From IMG/VR virus record IMGVR_UViG_2526164632_000040: a DNA stretch of 30,163 nucleotides. One strand, given 5' to 3'. Of this stretch, positions 15,218 through 28,983 are shown piece after piece (within the stretch, counting starts at the first letter, position 1; each line of letters opens with the position of its first letter). The notes beneath the pieces were generated by a model that was given only the letters and a program-made list of their open reading frames with translations, had not been told where the DNA came from and ran no database searches. The DNA comes from a virus. Taxonomy: Duplodnaviria; Heunggongvirae; Uroviricota; Caudoviricetes. A program made the position numbers and the translations under genes.

Positions 15218-16229
15218 ATGGCTGATAATTTTCAGCTTAAAGCCATCATCACCGCCGTTGACAGGCTATCCGGCCCGCTTAAAGGTATGCAGCGTCAGCT
15301 TAAGGGGTTTCAGAAAGAAGTCTCCAGCCTTGCTCTGGGCGCTGCCGGGGCGGGTACTGCAATAATGGGGGCACTGGCACTCCCTGTAAAATCAGCCATC
15401 ACCCTTGAATCGAAGATGGCTGATGTCCGCAAAGTGGTGAACGGTCTGGATACGCCGGATGCGTTTAAGGCCATGACGGAGCAGGTACGCGCTTTGTCTA
15501 CTGAGCTTCCCATGTCTGCAGACGGGATCGCGGAAATTGTGGCGGCTGGCGGTCAGGCCGGGATTGCACGTGATGAACTGATGCAGTTTGCCACTGATGC
15601 GGTGAAGATGGGCGTGGCCTTTGATACCACGGCTGAAGAGTCCGGGCAGATGATGGCCCAGTGGCGTACTGCGTTTAATATGACGCAGGATGAAGTGGCC
15701 GGGCTGGCTGACAAAATCAACTACCTTGGTAATACCGGCCCGGCGAATGCGAAGAAAATCTCCGATATTGTTACGCGTATTGGTCCTTTAGGTGGTGTTG
15801 CAGGTGTGGCTTCCGGCGAAATCGCGGCAATGGGGGCAACCATTGCCGGGATGGGCGTGGAGTCAGAAATTGCCGCCACAGGGATCAAGAACTTCATGCT
15901 TTCCCTGACCGCGGGAAATTCCGCGACAAAATCGCAGAAACAGGCATTACGTTTTCTGCGGATCAATCCGAAGAAATTAGCTGCTGATATGCAGAAAGAT
16001 GCCCGGGGAACCATGCTGTCTGTACTGGATGCGATGGCTAAAGTGCCTAAAGAAAAACAGGCAGCTGTGCTGAATGCCCTGTTCGGGAAAGAGTCTCTGG
16101 GCGCGATAGCACCTCTGCTGACTAACCTTGATTTGTTGCGTACCAACTTCAGGCGGGTTGCGGATTCCCAGCAGTATGGCAGTTCGATGCAGAAGGAATA
16201 TGCTTCGAGGGCAGCGACGACGGAAAACC
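15218..16229 (+). pseudogene. tail tape measure protein, N-terminal fragment (interrupted by IS66-family element)
   Basis: Ala/Gly-rich helical protein with GAGGAG Shine-Dalgarno. The reading frame runs into the IS end at 16230. Confidence 0.7.
16222..16229. repeat. 8-bp target-site duplication GGAAAACC (left copy) of IS66 copy 1
   Basis: Identical 8-mer GGAAAACC lies directly outside both IS ends (16222-16229 and 18934-18941). Confidence 0.8.
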
Positions 16230-16259
16230 GTAAGCGGCTCGCCAGAACCGTATTGATAT

Positions 16260-17831
16260 TTACTGAGAGGTCAGATCAACTTTCCAGGGCAACAGATCGC
16301 GTACCCGGTTTGCCGGCCAATCCTGGATATGCTCAATGACGTAACGCAGCCATTTTTCTGGTTCCACATTGTTCAGACGGCATGTGCCGATCAGCGAGTA
16401 CAACACCGCCGCATGTTCGCCACCGCTGTCGGAACCCGCGAACAGCCAGTTTTTCCGGCCTACGGCCACTCCCCGTAAGGCGTTCTCTGCGATGTTGTTG
16501 TCGATTTCCACCCAGCCATTACTGCAGTACACGTTCAGGCCATCCCACTGTTTCAGCAGGTATGCGAACGCTTTTGCCGTATCCGAGTGACGCGACAGTG
16601 TTTTCATCTGAGTCTGTATCCAGTCATACAGTGACTGCATCAGTGGCGCAGCTCTGGCTTTTCTTGCCGCCAGACGCTGTTCTGCTGTACATCCCCGGAC
16701 TTCTGCCTCTATGGCATACAGTTCACCGATACGCTGCAGGGCTTCCGTGGTGATGTCGGTGGGCACTCTTGCATGCACATCGTGGATTTTTCTCCGGGCA
16801 TGAGCCATACACGCGGCTTCCGTTATTCTGCCGGATTCGTATAACACCCGGTAACCACCGTAAGCATCGGCCTGAAGCACACCGCTGTAACCGGCCAGAT
16901 GATTTTGTGGATGGATACCTTTCCGGTCCGGTGAGTACGCGAACCAGACCGCCGGGGGCATTTCCGAACCGGCGTTACGGTCATCACGGACGTAGACCCA
17001 CAGCCGGGCGGTCCGGGTTTTACCGCTGCCCGGCTCCTGGACCGGGACGGGGATATCATCAGCATGGACTTTACCGGGCATCAGCACATACTGGCGCAGG
17101 ACGTCATACAGCGGCTCCAGCAGTTCAGCAACGGCACCTGTCCAGCGCCCCAGCGTGGCGCGGCTCAGCTCCACGCCCTGGCGACGGTATATTTCTGACT
17201 GGCGGTATAACGGCAGATGGTCTGCATATTTCCCGGTAACAACATGGGCCAGAAGCCCCGCTCCGGCATAACTGCGTGCAATGGGTTTTGAAGGTACTGT
17301 TGCCTGCACGATATGGTCGCACCGACAACAGGCCAGTTTCGGACGTTGTGTTTCGATAACCTTAAAGGCGCTGCTGATAAGCTCCAGTTGCTCTGACACA
17401 TCACACCCCAGAGGACTGAGGTCACCACCACAGGCCGGGCAGCATTCCTCTTCCGGCCGGATGACCCGGGTTTCACGGGGAAGTGAGGCCGGTAACGGTT
17501 TACGGGCTGAAGACTGGCGCAGGGCGGATGGCAGTACCGGGTCATATTGCTCACCCAGCGTTTCCGCCATTTCTTCCTGAAGTGCGCTGATTCGCTCCTG
17601 TGCTTCCTGTATCTGCCGTTCGGTTTTAGCGCGAAGTTTTTCTGAGCTTTTACCGAACTGCATGCGCTGCAGTTTCGCAACCAGCGCCTTCAGCCGGTTG
17701 ATTTCGGAAGCATAAGCCGCCACCCGCTGTGAGAGCAGGCGGTTGTATTTCGCCATCTGGCGGATGGTGTCCTGTTGCGTCTGCAACAGTGCCCGCAGGC
17801 GGGCATTCTCATGAGCAAGTGAGGTGTCCAT
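16260..17831 (-). CDS. tnpC: IS66-family transposase TnpC
   Basis: 523 aa with N-terminal coiled coil, CxxC...CxxC zinc-finger motif (CCPACGG...CCRCDH) and a large catalytic region. Confidence 0.8.
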
Positions 17832-17850
17832 ATCCTCACTTTACAACGGG

Positions 17851-18198
17851 TTATATGCGGATGCCAGCGCGTTCCGTTCGTTTCGGGTGCTTCCAGTCGA
17901 TGCCTTCGAGAAGCATGGACAACTGAGCCGGAGTAAGGTGAACCTTTCCATCGCGGGTGACCGGCCAGACGAAGCGGCCCCGCTCCAGGCGTTTGGTGAA
18001 GAGGCACAGTCCGTCACTGTCAGCCCACAACACTTTTATCTGGTCACCCCGGCGTCCGCGGAAGATGAACAGGTGTCCGGAGAACGGGTCATCCTTCAGG
18101 ACGTTCTGAACTTTTGAGGCCAGGCCGTTAAAGCCATTTCGCATATCGGTGATACCGGCAACCAGCCAGATACGCGAACCGGCAGGGAGAGATATCAT
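17851..18198 (-). CDS. tnpB: IS66-family accessory protein TnpB (Orf2)
   Basis: 115 aa with the motif LVAGITDMRNGFNGLA characteristic of IS66 Orf2 as recalled. Confidence 0.8.
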   Translation of the reverse strand: MISLPAGSRIWLVAGITDMRNGFNGLASKVQNVLKDDPFSGHLFIFRGRRGDQIKVLWADSDGLCLFTKRLERGRFVWPVTRDGKVHLTPAQLSMLLEGIDWKHPKRTERAGIRI

Positions 18199-18848
18199 CA
18201 GTGGCTGCTCCCTTTCATTTCGCGGATAAGTGTCTGTAATAACGCCGGTGTCAGTTCACCTTTCAGCCTGAGAGTTCCGGCCGGCAGAACCAGCTCGCAG
18301 CACAGACTGTCTGGCAGTGTATTTATCTGTTCAGGTATCTGCACTGGTGCCGGGATTTTATTATCCGGCTCCGGAGTTAACGTCACGGGAAGTAGCGATG
18401 TTTCATGTTCGCCGGGCGGTTGCAGGCCACCGTTACGCCAGAGATGCCGCCAGTTAAAGAGCAGGTTATCGTTAATTCCATTCTCTCGAGCTATTTGTGC
18501 GACACAGGCACCGGGTAAAAGAGTTTGCTGAACCAGTCTCCATTTAAACTCCGGTGAAAATCGGTTCCGGCGGGGTTTCTCTGCTTTCACAGGCTGAGTC
18601 ACGGTCGGGGCTGAAGGGTATCGCCCCGGGAAAAGAGCCCGGGCCAGTTGCCCGCAGGAATATTCACCGGAAAGAGGCCAGTCAGTGAATACCTGGTGAA
18701 ATCGCCTCACCAGAGAAAAAATGGCGGTTTTGCTGACACCAGTCTGCGCAGAAATGCGCGGGTACGACAGTGACTCGTCAAATCTCAGCTGTAGCACACG
18801 CAGGATCAATTCTGGATTATCTGCCAGTACCGCTTTTCGTGCATTCAT
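18198..18848 (-). CDS. tnpA: IS66-family accessory protein TnpA (Orf1), HTH-containing
   Basis: 216 aa. First ORF of the IS; its stop overlaps the tnpB start. Confidence 0.7.
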   Translation of the reverse strand: MNARKAVLADNPELILRVLQLRFDESLSYPRISAQTGVSKTAIFSLVRRFHQVFTDWPLSGEYSCGQLARALFPGRYPSAPTVTQPVKAEKPRRNRFSPEFKWRLVQQTLLPGACVAQIARENGINDNLLFNWRHLWRNGGLQPPGEHETSLLPVTLTPEPDNKIPAPVQIPEQINTLPDSLCCELVLPAGTLRLKGELTPALLQTLIREMKGSSH

Positions 18849-18933
18849 CTTAAATGTCCTTTTACTGCGAAAATGGACATTAGTATCGGAAACAGGAAAG
18901 GGAGGCGAAAGACGGTTTAAATGATGCGCTTAC

Positions 18934-19895: not shown

Positions 19896-20383
19896 ATGAA
19901 GAAAATGTTTATATTGTTGTTGGCTGTAGGACTGCCATTAAACTCCTTTGCGAAGCCAGTAACGGAAAAGCAGCTTGCTACATACTTTATAGATAACGTT
20001 AAAACTTCAGCGGATAAGAATATAGATCTAGATGTAGAGGGAATAAATAGACTGTCTGTAATATGCCCAGCAAAGTCGGCAAGTGGAACTCTTTTAATAA
20101 AAAAGCATCCTACGAGTTTAATAAAAGCATTGGTGCTTTTGATTTTGAAAATAACTCACAATCTGCACCATTGACTTTTATTGTACCAATTAGTGAGGAT
20201 GAAAATAACTTTGACTCGGAAATTATTGGTTTCTCTTTTGCATTTAAAATGCCAAGAGGGCAATTCTTTGTTGATGTTACGAAAACAGGGAAGGTAAAGG
20301 CTGGCGTAAATATTAGTGGTGAAAGCGGAATTACTTATTCATCATGTAGAATAGATACTCATAATGTTGATTATGATCGTTAA
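19896..20383 (+). pseudogene. AT-rich cargo gene for a secreted protein, apparently frameshifted at an A6 run
   Basis: ATG 19896 with AGGAGA Shine-Dalgarno. Signal peptide MKKMFILLLAVGLPLNSFA. The frame (codon phase 0) stops at 20174 while an overlapping ORF in phase 2 runs 20051-20383. A6 run at 20099-20104 lies in the overlap. Markedly AT-rich. Confidence 0.4.
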
Positions 20384-23862: not shown

Positions 23863-24907
23863 ATTTCAGCGCCCGACGCTGGCAGAAAATATCAGTATGC
23901 TCCGTAACGATTTATTCGCCAGGCTGGACGTCAGCGACACGCTCCGGCGCATGGATGAAGACGTGCGGGCAAAGGTGTATGCGGCGGCGCTGCATACGGT
24001 TTACGGGTACATCGATTATCTGGCAATGAATATGCTGCCTGACCTGTGCGATGAGTCCTGGCTGGCGCGACATGCTGCGATGAAACGGTGTCCGCGCAAG
24101 GGGGCCACGGCTGCCAGCGGGTATATGCGTTGGGAAGATGTCAGCGATGGCCTGAAGGTGACCGCCGGGAGTGTTATTCAGCGCGATGACCTGGTTCAGT
24201 ACACGGCAACTGCCGATGCAACCAGCTCCGGTGGTGTCCTGCGCGTGCCGATCGCCTGCTCAAGTGCAGGAGCGGTCGGTAACGCTGACGACGGTACGTC
24301 ATTAATCCTGGTCACGCCGGTTAATGGTCTGCCGTCTTCCGGCGTGGCAGATACCCTGACAGGCGGATTTGATACTGAAGAGCTGGAAACGTGGCGCGCC
24401 CGCGTCATTGAGCGGTATTACTGGACGCCTCAGGGCGGGGCTGACGGGGACTATGTCGTCTGGGCTAAAGAAGTGCCCGGCATTACCCGCGCATGGACAT
24501 ACCGTCACTGGATGGGAACGGGAACTGTCGGTGTGATGATTGCCGGCAGTGACCTGATTAATCCCATTCCGGAAGAATCAACGGAAACGGCGGCAAGACA
24601 ACATATCGGGCCACTGGCCCCGGTGGCAGGCTCTGATTTGTATGTGTTCAGGCCGGTGGCGCATAAAGTGGATTTTCATATCCGCGTGACGCCGGACACA
24701 CCGGAAATACGGGCTGCCATCACCGCCGAGTTGCGTTCGTTCCTGCTGCGTGATGGTTATCCGCAGGGAGAACTGAAGGTGTCGCGTATCAGTGAGGCGA
24801 TTTCCGGTGCGAACGGGGAATACAGCCATCAGTTGCTTGCACCGGTGGACAATATCTCCATTGCGAAAAACGAACTGGCGGTTCTGGGGACGATTTCATG
24901 GACGTGA
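23849..24907 (+). CDS. baseplate J-like protein (Mu gp47-like)
   Basis: 352 aa; size and order match gpJ/gp47-family baseplate wedge proteins. Confidence 0.65.
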
Positions 24908-25482
24908 CAAACGATGATTACATCCGTCTGTTGTCGGCACTGCTGCCGCCCGGTCCGGCGTGGTCAGCCAGCGATCCGGCGATTGCAGGTGCGGCACCGT
25001 CATTAACCCGTGTTCATCAGCGTGCGGATGCCCTGATGCGGGAGCTGGATCCGCGCACCACCACCGAACTGATAAACCGCTGGGAGCGTCTGTGCGGCCT
25101 GCCGGATGAATGTATTCCCGCAGGGACACAGACCCTTCGCCAGCGTCAGCAACGGCTGGATGCGAAGGTTAACCTGGCGGGCGGCATCAACGAGGATTTT
25201 TATCTTGCACAGCTTGCTGCCCTGGGCAGACCAGATGCCACCATCACGCGATACGACAAAAGCACCTTCACCTGCTCATCGGCCTGTACTGACGCGGTGA
25301 ATGCGCCGGAATGGCGGTATTACTGGCAGGTCAACATGCCAGCTGCCACCAACACCACCTGGATGACATGTGGTGATCCCTGTGATTCCGCACTGCGTAT
25401 CTGGGGCGACACCGTTGTCGAGTGTGTGCTTAACAAACTCTGCCCTTCGCATACCTACGTAATTTTTAAATATCCGGAGTAA
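24898..25482 (+). CDS. Mu gp48-like tail protein (DUF2313 / YmfQ-like)
   Basis: 194 aa, Cys-rich C-terminus, immediately upstream of the tail fiber as in the e14 prophage. Confidence 0.6.
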
Positions 25483-25485
25483 TCC

Positions 25486-26585
25486 ATGCATCGTATAGAC
25501 ACGAAAACCGCGCAGAAGGATAAGTTCGGCGCGGGTAAGAACGGTTTTACCCGTGGTAACCCCCAGACCGGCACGCCTGCCACCGTTCTGGATGATGACT
25601 ACTTTGACATGTTGCAGGAAGAACTCTGCAGCGTGGTGGAGGCATCCGGTGCCAGCCTGGAGAAGGGGCGGCACGATCAGCTTCTTACCGCGCTTCGTGC
25701 GCTGCTGTTAAGCCGCAAGAATCCGTTTGGCGATATCAAATCGGATGGCACTGTGCAAACGGCTCTCGAAAACCTGGGAATGACAGACATTCTGAATGAT
25801 AAACAGGATAAAAATGATAATCTGACATCATTGTCGAGCTTAACAGGAATACCGGATGGGCTGGCATTTTTTACAGGTGCCGGAACAATGGATATGACAG
25901 CGCTGACTCAAAATGGCAGGGAAATTTTAAGTAAAAAAACGTATCGGAAACTCTAAAATATTTAACACTTGGGGATGGAACAGGAAGGCTTTTGGGGGTT
26001 CAGGCATTTGGATCATCTGGGACTTATATCAAATCACCTGGTGTAACGAAAATTATAGTGGAAGCCGTTGGCGGAGGTGGTGCCAGTGGTAATTTGTCGG
26101 CAACTGCATCTGGTAACTGTGGTGTAAGTGCTGCCGGTTCCAACGGGGCATATGCTAAAGCATTTTTTTATCAGTCTATACCTGAATCCGTGCAAGTAAC
26201 TATTGGAAGCGGTGGTGTAGCAGGAACAGGACCAGGAGGCTCTGGAGGTGACGGCGGGAATACAAGCTTTGGTGATTTGCTTGTATGTCCGGGAGGAAGG
26301 GGATCAACTCAAGTTCAGCAGGTACCTCCATTTTCAGGGGGAAGTGCAACAGAAGCACCAATTCCTACAGGGCAAGGGATTCTGTTCCATTCAGTTTCAC
26401 GATCAAATTTATGTGGGGCACTTGGACTTGGTGATGATCAGGCGATTGGCGTTGAAAGTATAACCACTACTATGCTTGGGATATACGGTATTGGCGGGAC
26501 AGGTAAATACAATAAGGCGTCATCAGGTCCAGCGACAGGAAATAATGGAAATCAGGGATATATTCTTGTGTGGGAGTATCAGTAA
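25486..26585 (+). pseudogene. tail fiber protein: conserved N-terminal domain plus glycine-rich C-terminal domain, split by an apparent -1 frameshift at an A7 run
   Basis: N-terminal part (25486-25956) has the motif MHRIDT...[28 protein letters not shown] and ends in stop TAA 25954-25956. The glycine-rich ORF is open in the -1 frame from 25935 to 26585. A7 run at 25933-25939. GC content drops from about 25790 onward. Confidence 0.55.
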
Positions 26586-26791
26586 TGAGCGATATTTATG
26601 CAGTCGTACAAAATGGTGTCGTTACAAATCTTGTTGTATGGGATGGTAAGTCAGAGTTTAAGTCAGAAAAAGCGGATATAGTTAAATGTGTTGGAGATGT
26701 TGGTATTGGCTGGTCATATGACGGTAAAAAATTCATCAAGCCTTCCTTAAAACCAGATGTAGTTACTCCTCAAGATGAGTTAGTCAGTTAA
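26585..26791 (+). CDS. hypothetical small protein downstream of tail fiber (68 aa)
   Basis: ATG 26585 with GGGAG 8 nt upstream, overlapping the tail-fiber stop. AT-rich. Followed by a terminator. No family recognised. Confidence 0.35.
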   Translation: MSDIYAVVQNGVVTNLVVWDGKSEFKSEKADIVKCVGDVGIGWSYDGKKFIKPSLKPDVVTPQDELVS

Positions 26792-27362: not shown

Positions 27363-27392
27363 GTAAGCGGCTCGCCAGAACCGTATTGATAT

Positions 27393-28964
27393 TTACTGAG
27401 AGGTCAGATCAACTTTCCAGGGCAACAGATCGCGTACCCGGTTTGCCGGCCAATCCTGGATATGCTCAATGACGTAACGCAGCCATTTTTCTGGTTCCAC
27501 ATTGTTCAGACGGCATGTGCCGATCAGCGAGTACAACACCGCCGCATGTTCGCCACCGCTGTCGGAACCCGCGAACAGCCAGTTTTTCCGGCCTACGGCC
27601 ACTCCCCGTAAGGCGTTCTCTGCGATGTTGTTGTCGATTTCCACCCAGCCATTACTGCAGTACACGTTCAGGCCATCCCACTGTTTCAGCAGGTATGCGA
27701 ACGCTTTTGCCGTATCCGAGTGACGCGACAGTGTTTTCATCTGAGTCTGTATCCAGTCATACAGTGACTGCATCAGTGGCGCAGCTCTGGCTTTTCTTGC
27801 CGCCAGACGCTGTTCTGCTGTACATCCCCGGACTTCTGCCTCTATGGCATACAGTTCACCGATACGCTGCAGGGCTTCCGTGGTGATGTCGGTGGGCACT
27901 CTTGCATGCACATCGTGGATTTTTCTCCGGGCATGAGCCATACACGCGGCTTCCGTTATTCTGCCGGATTCGTATAACACCCGGTAACCACCGTAAGCAT
28001 CGGCCTGAAGCACACCGCTGTAACCGGCCAGATGATTTTGTGGATGGATACCTTTCCGGTCCGGTGAGTACGCGAACCAGACCGCCGGGGGCATTTCCGA
28101 ACCGGCGTTACGGTCATCACGGACGTAGACCCACAGCCGGGCGGTCCGGGTTTTACCGCTGCCCGGCTCCTGGACCGGGACGGGGATATCATCAGCATGG
28201 ACTTTACCGGGCATCAGCACATACTGGCGCAGGACGTCATACAGCGGCTCCAGCAGTTCAGCAACGGCACCTGTCCAGCGCCCCAGCGTGGCGCGGCTCA
28301 GCTCCACGCCCTGGCGACGGTATATTTCTGACTGGCGGTATAACGGCAGATGGTCTGCATATTTCCCGGTAACAACATGGGCCAGAAGCCCCGCTCCGGC
28401 ATAACTGCGTGCAATGGGTTTTGAAGGTACTGTTGCCTGCACGATATGGTCGCACCGACAACAGGCCAGTTTCGGACGTTGTGTTTCGATAACCTTAAAG
28501 GCGCTGCTGATAAGCTCCAGTTGCTCTGACACATCACACCCCAGAGGACTGAGGTCACCACCACAGGCCGGGCAGCATTCCTCTTCCGGCCGGATGACCC
28601 GGGTTTCACGGGGAAGTGAGGCCGGTAACGGTTTACGGGCTGAAGACTGGCGCAGGGCGGATGGCAGTACCGGGTCATATTGCTCACCCAGCGTTTCCGC
28701 CATTTCTTCCTGAAGTGCGCTGATTCGCTCCTGTGCTTCCTGTATCTGCCGTTCGGTTTTAGCGCGAAGTTTTTCTGAGCTTTTACCGAACTGCATGCGC
28801 TGCAGTTTCGCAACCAGCGCCTTCAGCCGGTTGATTTCGGAAGCATAAGCCGCCACCCGCTGTGAGAGCAGGCGGTTGTATTTCGCCATCTGGCGGATGG
28901 TGTCCTGTTGCGTCTGCAACAGTGCCCGCAGGCGGGCATTCTCATGAGCAAGTGAGGTGTCCAT
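27393..28964 (-). CDS. tnpC: IS66-family transposase TnpC
   Basis: Translation identical to copy 1 TnpC (523 aa). Confidence 0.8.
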
Positions 28965-28983
28965 ATCCTCACTTTACAACGGG

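Follow-up and report, generated by a model that had tools for sequence, protein, structure and literature searches.

A mosaic glycine-rich tail fibre of an SfV-like Escherichia coli prophage, split at an adenine run that was probably undercalled

Introduction

Does a tail-fibre gene that is open in two overlapping reading frames encode one protein or two, and if one, what broke it? The window analysed here, by which we mean the whole stretch of 30,163 nucleotides in IMG/VR record IMGVR_UViG_2526164632_000040, carries such a gene at 25486..26585 (features lie on the plus strand unless the minus strand is named). The gene would encode 366 aa if its adenine run had eight letters (A8); with the seven present in the window (A7) it consists of a 156-aa open reading frame (ORF; 25486-25956) and an open -1 frame (25935-26585). 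The original prediction, made from the sequence alone, read both frames as one mosaic tail fibre and offered three causes for the break: a pseudogenising deletion, a homopolymer sequencing error, or slipped-strand phase variation of host range.

Results and discussion

One fibre gene in two frames

Re-reading the window recovered every position that had been predicted. From the ATG at 25486 the zero frame ran on the plus strand to a TAA at 25954..25956, a stop arising from the frameshift, and its codons across the run were AGT AAA AAA ACG. In translation, the -1 frame had a TAA at 25932-25934, was open from 25935 and ended at a TAA at 26583-26585. Both frames met at the A7 run itself (25933..25939).

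Megablast found the distal half in 12 complete E. coli genome records, and in 12/12 the matched stretch exceeded the query by one base; A8 was read directly in four of these and inferred from the longer match in the other eight. A continuous ORF together with A8 was present in FDAARGOS_1059 (L001), CP52E (L002), EH08-18-36 (L003) and the O111:H2 strain 12A (L008), with a length of 366 aa in L001, L002 and L008 and 388 aa in L003. The halves belong together because in the A8 relatives one 366-aa ORF runs through the junction with an unchanged sequence, and the fused protein matched phrog_863, a tail family, end to end (residues 1-365, E 6.8e-70). Judged from these comparisons, the two halves form one protein, broken by the loss of one A in the homopolymer, as had been proposed. 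Two observations had been named in advance as speaking against a single fibre. The first, an authentic stop followed by a separately started glycine-rich protein, was looked for and was absent at this site in the homologues; the second, a -1 product unlike any fibre C-terminus, gave way to a likeness to a solved fibre tip, that of gp24 from cyanophage Pam3.

In complete genomes, the PGAP annotation labels the intact 366-aa ORF as a 297-nt pseudogene ('stfP, partial, missing C-terminus'), and the remainder is either unannotated or given as a 268-aa 'glycine-rich domain-containing protein' from an internal start (L001 6001-7101; L008 20001-21101; L002 3001-4101). The gene is intact, and the stfP pseudogene call is an artefact of annotation.

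Distribution of the A7 and A8 states

The window was identical over 10,678 nt to draft contig AIHC01000087.1 (GCA_000250255.2). Its exact 156-aa product was recorded in only four assemblies, the DEC12 drafts with the consecutive accessions AIHA to AIHD, for which the source names shown were DEC12A and DEC12B. These records form part of the DECA collection of E. coli, a 2012 deposit. DEC14B had another allele whose frameshifted end was the same (...SKKTYRKL), a state read from its protein sequence. A7 was also present in one IMG/VR contig otherwise identical to 12A, and in the Logan assemblies of runs SRR124115 and SRR125865. A7 was thus confined to the 2012 DECA data (four DEC12 drafts, DEC14B, the IMG copy and two SRA-run assemblies), and every assembly examined from outside that project had A8.

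A8 or an intact ORF was found in L001, L002, L003, L008-L011, L016 and L018-L020. Intact 366-aa members were present in the 90% clusters P0001 and P0002, the largest, P0135, being on 365 contigs; for cluster 2 this refers to the 15 of 51 members listed, so that a truncated copy from outside DECA could be missed. An exact-pattern scan over the A-run returned five loci among viral_contigs, four with A8 and one with A7, and nothing in genome_contigs or metagenome_contigs. The only lengths seen were A7 and A8, and A9 never occurred. One Logan contig (L015) begins 4 nt before the A-run.

Comparison with a finished genome and the cause of the frameshift

The closest comparison was offered by the finished genome of the O111:H2 strain 12A. 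One DEC12 draft (L004, AIHA01) equalled 12A over 12,471 nt bar this one A, and the other DEC12 drafts differed from 12A by one to three SNPs; the state of the A-run cut across this SNP grouping and tracked the sequencing project. Going by name, serotype, accession order and sequence identity, 12A is probably the same strain as a DEC12 draft, 12A being DEC12A and L004 its draft. Between the window and 12A there were six SNPs and three indels over about 24.8 kb. Each of the three indels took one letter out of a homopolymer in the window: T7 became T6 at 1942-1947, A7 became A6 at 20099-20104, and A8 became A7 at 25933-25939. The A8 run was the only 8-mer homopolymer in the 41 kb of the 12A locus.

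The two other indels lie in hypothetical ORFs. At 1942-1947, the window has T6 and 12A has T7, within an 81-aa ORF (WP_001437320.1 in 12A) between the antiterminator and holin genes. At 20099-20104, the window has A6, compared to A7 in 12A, FDAARGOS_1059 and the other three DEC12 drafts, and the missing A cuts a 162-aa ORF between the tape-measure and DNA-circularisation genes to 106 aa; this A6 is probably another homopolymer undercall.

Since A7 follows the sequencing project and not phylogeny, and since all three indels against a near-identical finished genome are undercalls in runs of at least seven, it is very probable that the true sequence at 25933 is A8 and that the window's A7, and with it the frameshift, is an undercall artefact. 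We infer base-calling as the cause: in the 2012 DECA draft assemblies, which we take to be the product of flow-based (454-type) pyrosequencing, a homopolymer undercall would have turned A8 into A7 and so split a gene that is intact by design. Independent assemblies from the raw runs also gave A7, and the error, if it is one, must therefore be systematic at the level of the reads. Of the three causes originally offered, the homopolymer sequencing error is the one that best fits a state following the project and indels limited to homopolymers; the deletion and the phase variation fared worse.

A genuine deletion is the first of these. A real change from A8 to A7 may have pseudogenised the fibre twice, once in the DEC12 lineage and a second time, on its own, in DEC14B, as part of the decay of an already dead prophage. 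The A7 shared by DEC12A-D could be one real event, as these strains are close relatives and true replication slippage also prefers the longest homopolymer; the reproducibility of A7 in four drafts and in the raw-run assemblies would also fit a true deletion. Selection on the fibre may also be relaxed, because the window's prophage copy has suffered two IS66 insertions. An IS66-family element lies on the minus strand in the tape-measure gene (16230..18923), flanked by the 8-bp target duplication GGAAAACC at 16222-16229 and 18924-18931, where the alignment to 12A breaks. A second copy (27363-30056, minus strand) interrupts a dinI-like gene. Both carry tnpA, tnpB and tnpC on the minus strand and differ from one another at three positions. 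However, 12A and FDAARGOS_1059 had no IS66 at either site, and the three other DEC12 drafts, A7 like the window, had none in the stretch examined, from the end of the tape-measure gene to the integrase. A deletion would moreover call for a reversion or a difference of stock in finished 12A, which has A8 and is identical to one DEC12 draft over about 12.4 kb, and for a second identical event in DEC14B, yet none was found outside the DECA project; and the other two indels separating the window from 12A are likewise of the homopolymer-undercall type. We regard a genuine deletion as unlikely. The original prediction had counted the fibre as a second lesion in the same prophage. The first lesion stands, in that the IS66 in the tape-measure gene is a real lesion of this prophage copy, and with the insertions in the tape-measure and dinI-like genes this copy is defective whatever the state of its fibre; the fibre lesion is probably not real.

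Phase variation would make the A-tract a slipped-strand contingency switch, with the fibre, and with it host range or infectivity, ON at A8 and OFF at A7 at high frequency. A homopolymer of seven to eight adenines inside an ORF would suit such a switch, and both lengths occur in public data, with A7 in two alleles (DEC12 and DEC14B). Homopolymer contingency loci and flow-sequencing errors indeed look alike, as in both a 1-nt change in poly-A length switches the reading frame. Contingency loci, though, vary in length at the level of the population, whereas here the length varied in one sequencing project only, with no OFF state among the examined assemblies from others, and the three undercalls in the longest runs resemble flow-based base-calling errors. 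Only two lengths were seen, with no A9. Nor was the tract conserved, with diverged alleles reading SKEN, SKDS, GKNT or AKND in its place and 320-aa relatives lacking the whole segment. A high-frequency switch is on these grounds highly improbable, and it is quite improbable that the A8 is a real hypermutable site of which the DEC12 and DEC14B A7 alleles are genuine OFF states. If it were, slipped-strand mispairing would let SfV-like prophages turn the fibre that binds the receptor off and back on.

An out-of-frame gene may also be decoded as it stands, by -1 ribosomal frameshifting or by transcriptional slippage, yielding both the 156-aa product and the full fibre. A single slip of the P-site tRNA-Lys, from AAA at 25936-25938 to 25935-25937, would restore ...SKKNVSE..., and RNA polymerase is able to insert an extra A on runs of adenine. 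An A7 run is short for efficient transcriptional slippage, however, and the phase AAA AAA ACG does not form an X XXY YYZ heptamer, the A-site ACG being unable to re-pair with AAC. In homologues from other projects the gene is in frame, and the split arrangement is thus not a conserved one. We rejected programmed frameshifting on account of these in-frame homologues and the missing slippery heptamer, and consider it scarcely credible; a single P-site slip is the only one that the run allows. We therefore return to the undercalled A8 as the preferred reading, and treat the fibre below as the 366-aa protein of the A8 relatives.

Modular architecture of the fibre

From its homologies, the fused 366-aa protein is a mosaic tail fibre. 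It belongs to an SfV-like prophage that has integrated at dusA, where it adjoins dusA and an integrase, and whose head is of the HK97 type. The genes 5' of the fibre encode a Mu-type baseplate (gp44-, gp45-, gp46-, gp47/J- and gp48-like). The gp48-like baseplate gene, of the ymfQ family (24898..25482; PF10076, E 9.4e-27), lies directly upstream of the fibre.

The N-terminal block of the fibre (aa 1-98; 25486..25778; GC about 0.54-0.59) is of the baseplate-docking type found in Mu S and in ORF21 of SfV, SfI, SfII and SfIV. Nucleotide identity to these four Sf phages was 95-96% over query 1-293, and amino-acid identity of residues 1-98 to their ORF21 was 95-97%. A family profile of aa 31-120 matched residues 35-126 of Mu tail fibre S (E 2.7e-6). 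Both this homology and the place right after the gp48-like gene are those of an SfV/Mu-type docking N-terminus. The fibre resembles the ORF21 'short tail fiber' of SfV, SfI, SfII and SfIV in its first 98-99 residues and in its position after a Mu gp48-like gene, and differs from it in everything distal to 25778, which is unrelated. Likewise, it shares with Mu tail fibre S (PDB 5YVQ, 8JU3, 9KI1; chaperone Tfa) a homologous N-terminal region and Mu-type baseplate genes upstream, but its sequence matched nothing in the C-terminal half of that protein. No invertible cassette like the G segment of Mu was seen beside the fibre gene.

The end of the docking block is a conserved junction box (25711..25778), common to fibres with different sequences on its two sides. 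In complete E. coli genomes searched by megablast, matches to the distal cassette without the N-terminus began at query 226, matches to the N-terminus without the cassette stopped at about query 293, and about 1,800 genomes matched the first ~300 nt only. Other E. coli myophages (H93-H95) shared query 226-293 alone. In EH08-18-36 (L003), a different N-terminus was joined at the 25711-25778 box. These limits suggest that the 68-nt box is likely a point of recombinational exchange. The cassette that begins there (about 25711-26743) was found at 97.5-99.1% identity behind the other N-terminus of L003 and its relatives, whose baseplate also differs (DUF2612 plus baseplate J). By tblastn and blastn against a collection of 50,697 phage records, the glycine-rich C-terminal cassette was absent, and the N-terminus alone was matched.

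A linker (aa 99-173 of the fused protein; 25780..26003) follows the box and holds the A-run. It matched several otherwise unrelated tail-fibre PHROGs (2631, 454, 11303 and 7032) over aa 99-173, so the motif that the original prediction took for a conserved hinge does lie in a segment common to many tail-fibre families. Among relatives in the alignment, the linker was present or absent as a block. The 320-aa relatives (e.g. P0100 and P0102) join ENLGLGDASGY straight to VGRLL..., without the roughly 60-residue linker (alignment residues 104-165 of P0001). As these relatives lack the whole linker, the hinge is, on the alignment, dispensable for this fibre type. The predicted fall in GC content was also borne out, from 0.54-0.59 (25500-25800) to 0.40-0.45 (25800-26100), and the fall near 25800 coincides with the end of SfV-family homology in the fibre gene at 25778. 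The low-GC distal part is a cassette that also stands behind other phage N-termini, and the mosaic that had been proposed is borne out.

The glycine-rich tip

The distal part of the fused protein (aa 180-357; 26022..26555) is a putative glycine-rich receptor-binding domain. It matched Gly_rich_2 (PF21722) at 29.9 bits, above the gathering cut-off of 24.3, and the window's own 197-aa ORF also has PF21722 among precomputed matches. Its translation includes motifs of the GGGGxGG type (GGGGASG and GSGGVAGTGPGGSGGDGG), and glycine occupied 19 of the 28 invariant alignment columns.

We modelled the fibre with AlphaFold (AF2) from 36 homologues. Mean pLDDT was 60.8, with values of 83-90 at roughly aa 170-280 and below 50 at aa 280-331. 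The best Foldseek matches of the whole fibre model were to the fibre of Pam3, gp24 (7ypx_A, E 1.4e-6; 7yfw_a, E 2.1e-6; probability 1.0 each), with TM-scores of only 0.32/0.44 and 24% identity, followed by Bxb1 tail-tip chains and the TG domains of ALK/LTK (E 5e-3 to 1e-1). Sequence searches of the PDB returned nothing for the glycine-rich half or for the small ORF downstream, so the link to 7YPX was made by fold comparison, and NCBIfam held no model for either protein.

In Pam3 gp24, a docking helix at the N-terminus leads into a TNF-like and a glycine-rich domain, which bind the receptor and carry a GGGGxGG motif, and assembly of gp24 is helped by the chaperone gp25 (PMC9608196). The E. coli fibre would resemble it in being made of one protein and sitting on a minimal, Mu-like baseplate (PDB 7YPX; PMC9608196), with an N-terminal helical docking region and a TNF-like plus glycine-rich tip bearing GGGGxGG. 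It differs in that sequence identity is low, the model being one of moderate confidence overall, in an extra linker of about 70 aa, and in the host, an enterobacterium here compared to a cyanobacterium for Pam3. A glycine-rich lattice presenting variable distal loops is also shared with the gp38 adhesin of Salmonella phage S16 and T2-type phages and with the TG domain of ALK/LTK. Unlike the tip of this fibre, gp38 is a protein of its own, attached to gp37 and outside the fibre chain; the fold matches of our model did not include it, and it has been related to Pam3 gp24 (PMC9608196).

We postulate that the N-terminal domain docks on the Mu-type baseplate and is followed by the widely shared linker and a distal TNF-like plus glycine-rich tip, which presumably binds the host receptor. 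Trimerisation of the fibre is likewise presumed. The fibre gene itself is unremarkable within a type of fibre already known.

A small partner downstream

The ATG of a 68-aa ORF (26585..26791) overlaps the fibre stop (TAATG). The ORF matched phrog_14370, which has no function given (E 5e-26). In a shallow alignment its aa 1-53 were almost invariant and its tail varied with the downstream context; the cassette of about 25711-26743 takes in these first 53 codons. The small ORF adjoined the cassette in L001, L002, L003 and L009-L011.

Its AF2 model, from the shallow alignment, had a pLDDT of 75 and matched chain 7ypx_a, the Pam3 chaperone gp25, with E 0.049, a TMq of 0.59 and an rmsd of 2.4 Å over 55 columns. 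This match, weak alone, gains weight because two adjacent genes independently match two chains of one Pam3 complex. It covers a 55-residue beta-sandwich only, and the next fold match had E 3.5; in the PDB sequence search the ORF had no match to gp25. The part resembled is the N-terminal beta-sandwich of gp25, which grips the tip, while the downstream protein, at 59-68 aa, differs from gp25 in being without its C-terminal helical trimerisation domain.

The fold match suggests that the 68-aa protein, which travels with the glycine-rich cassette, is probably an accessory protein or minimal chaperone of the fibre. It would be translationally coupled to the fibre and probably helps the tip to fold, as the N-terminal domain of gp25 does.

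Implications

The out-of-frame fibre of the window mimics prophage decay or phase variation but tracks a sequencing project, which calls for caution with such loci: an A7 fibre should be counted neither as a prophage lesion nor as a host-range switch, and two other small ORFs of the window are broken in the same homopolymer manner. A likelier novelty than a phase switch is the 53-residue core of the downstream protein, which may be a minimal fibre chaperone without the trimerisation domain of Mu Tfa and Pam3 gp25. For the biology of these prophages, the locus means that E. coli prophages swap a Pam3-like glycine-rich tip and a tiny chaperone-like partner as one cassette, on at least two baseplate backgrounds.
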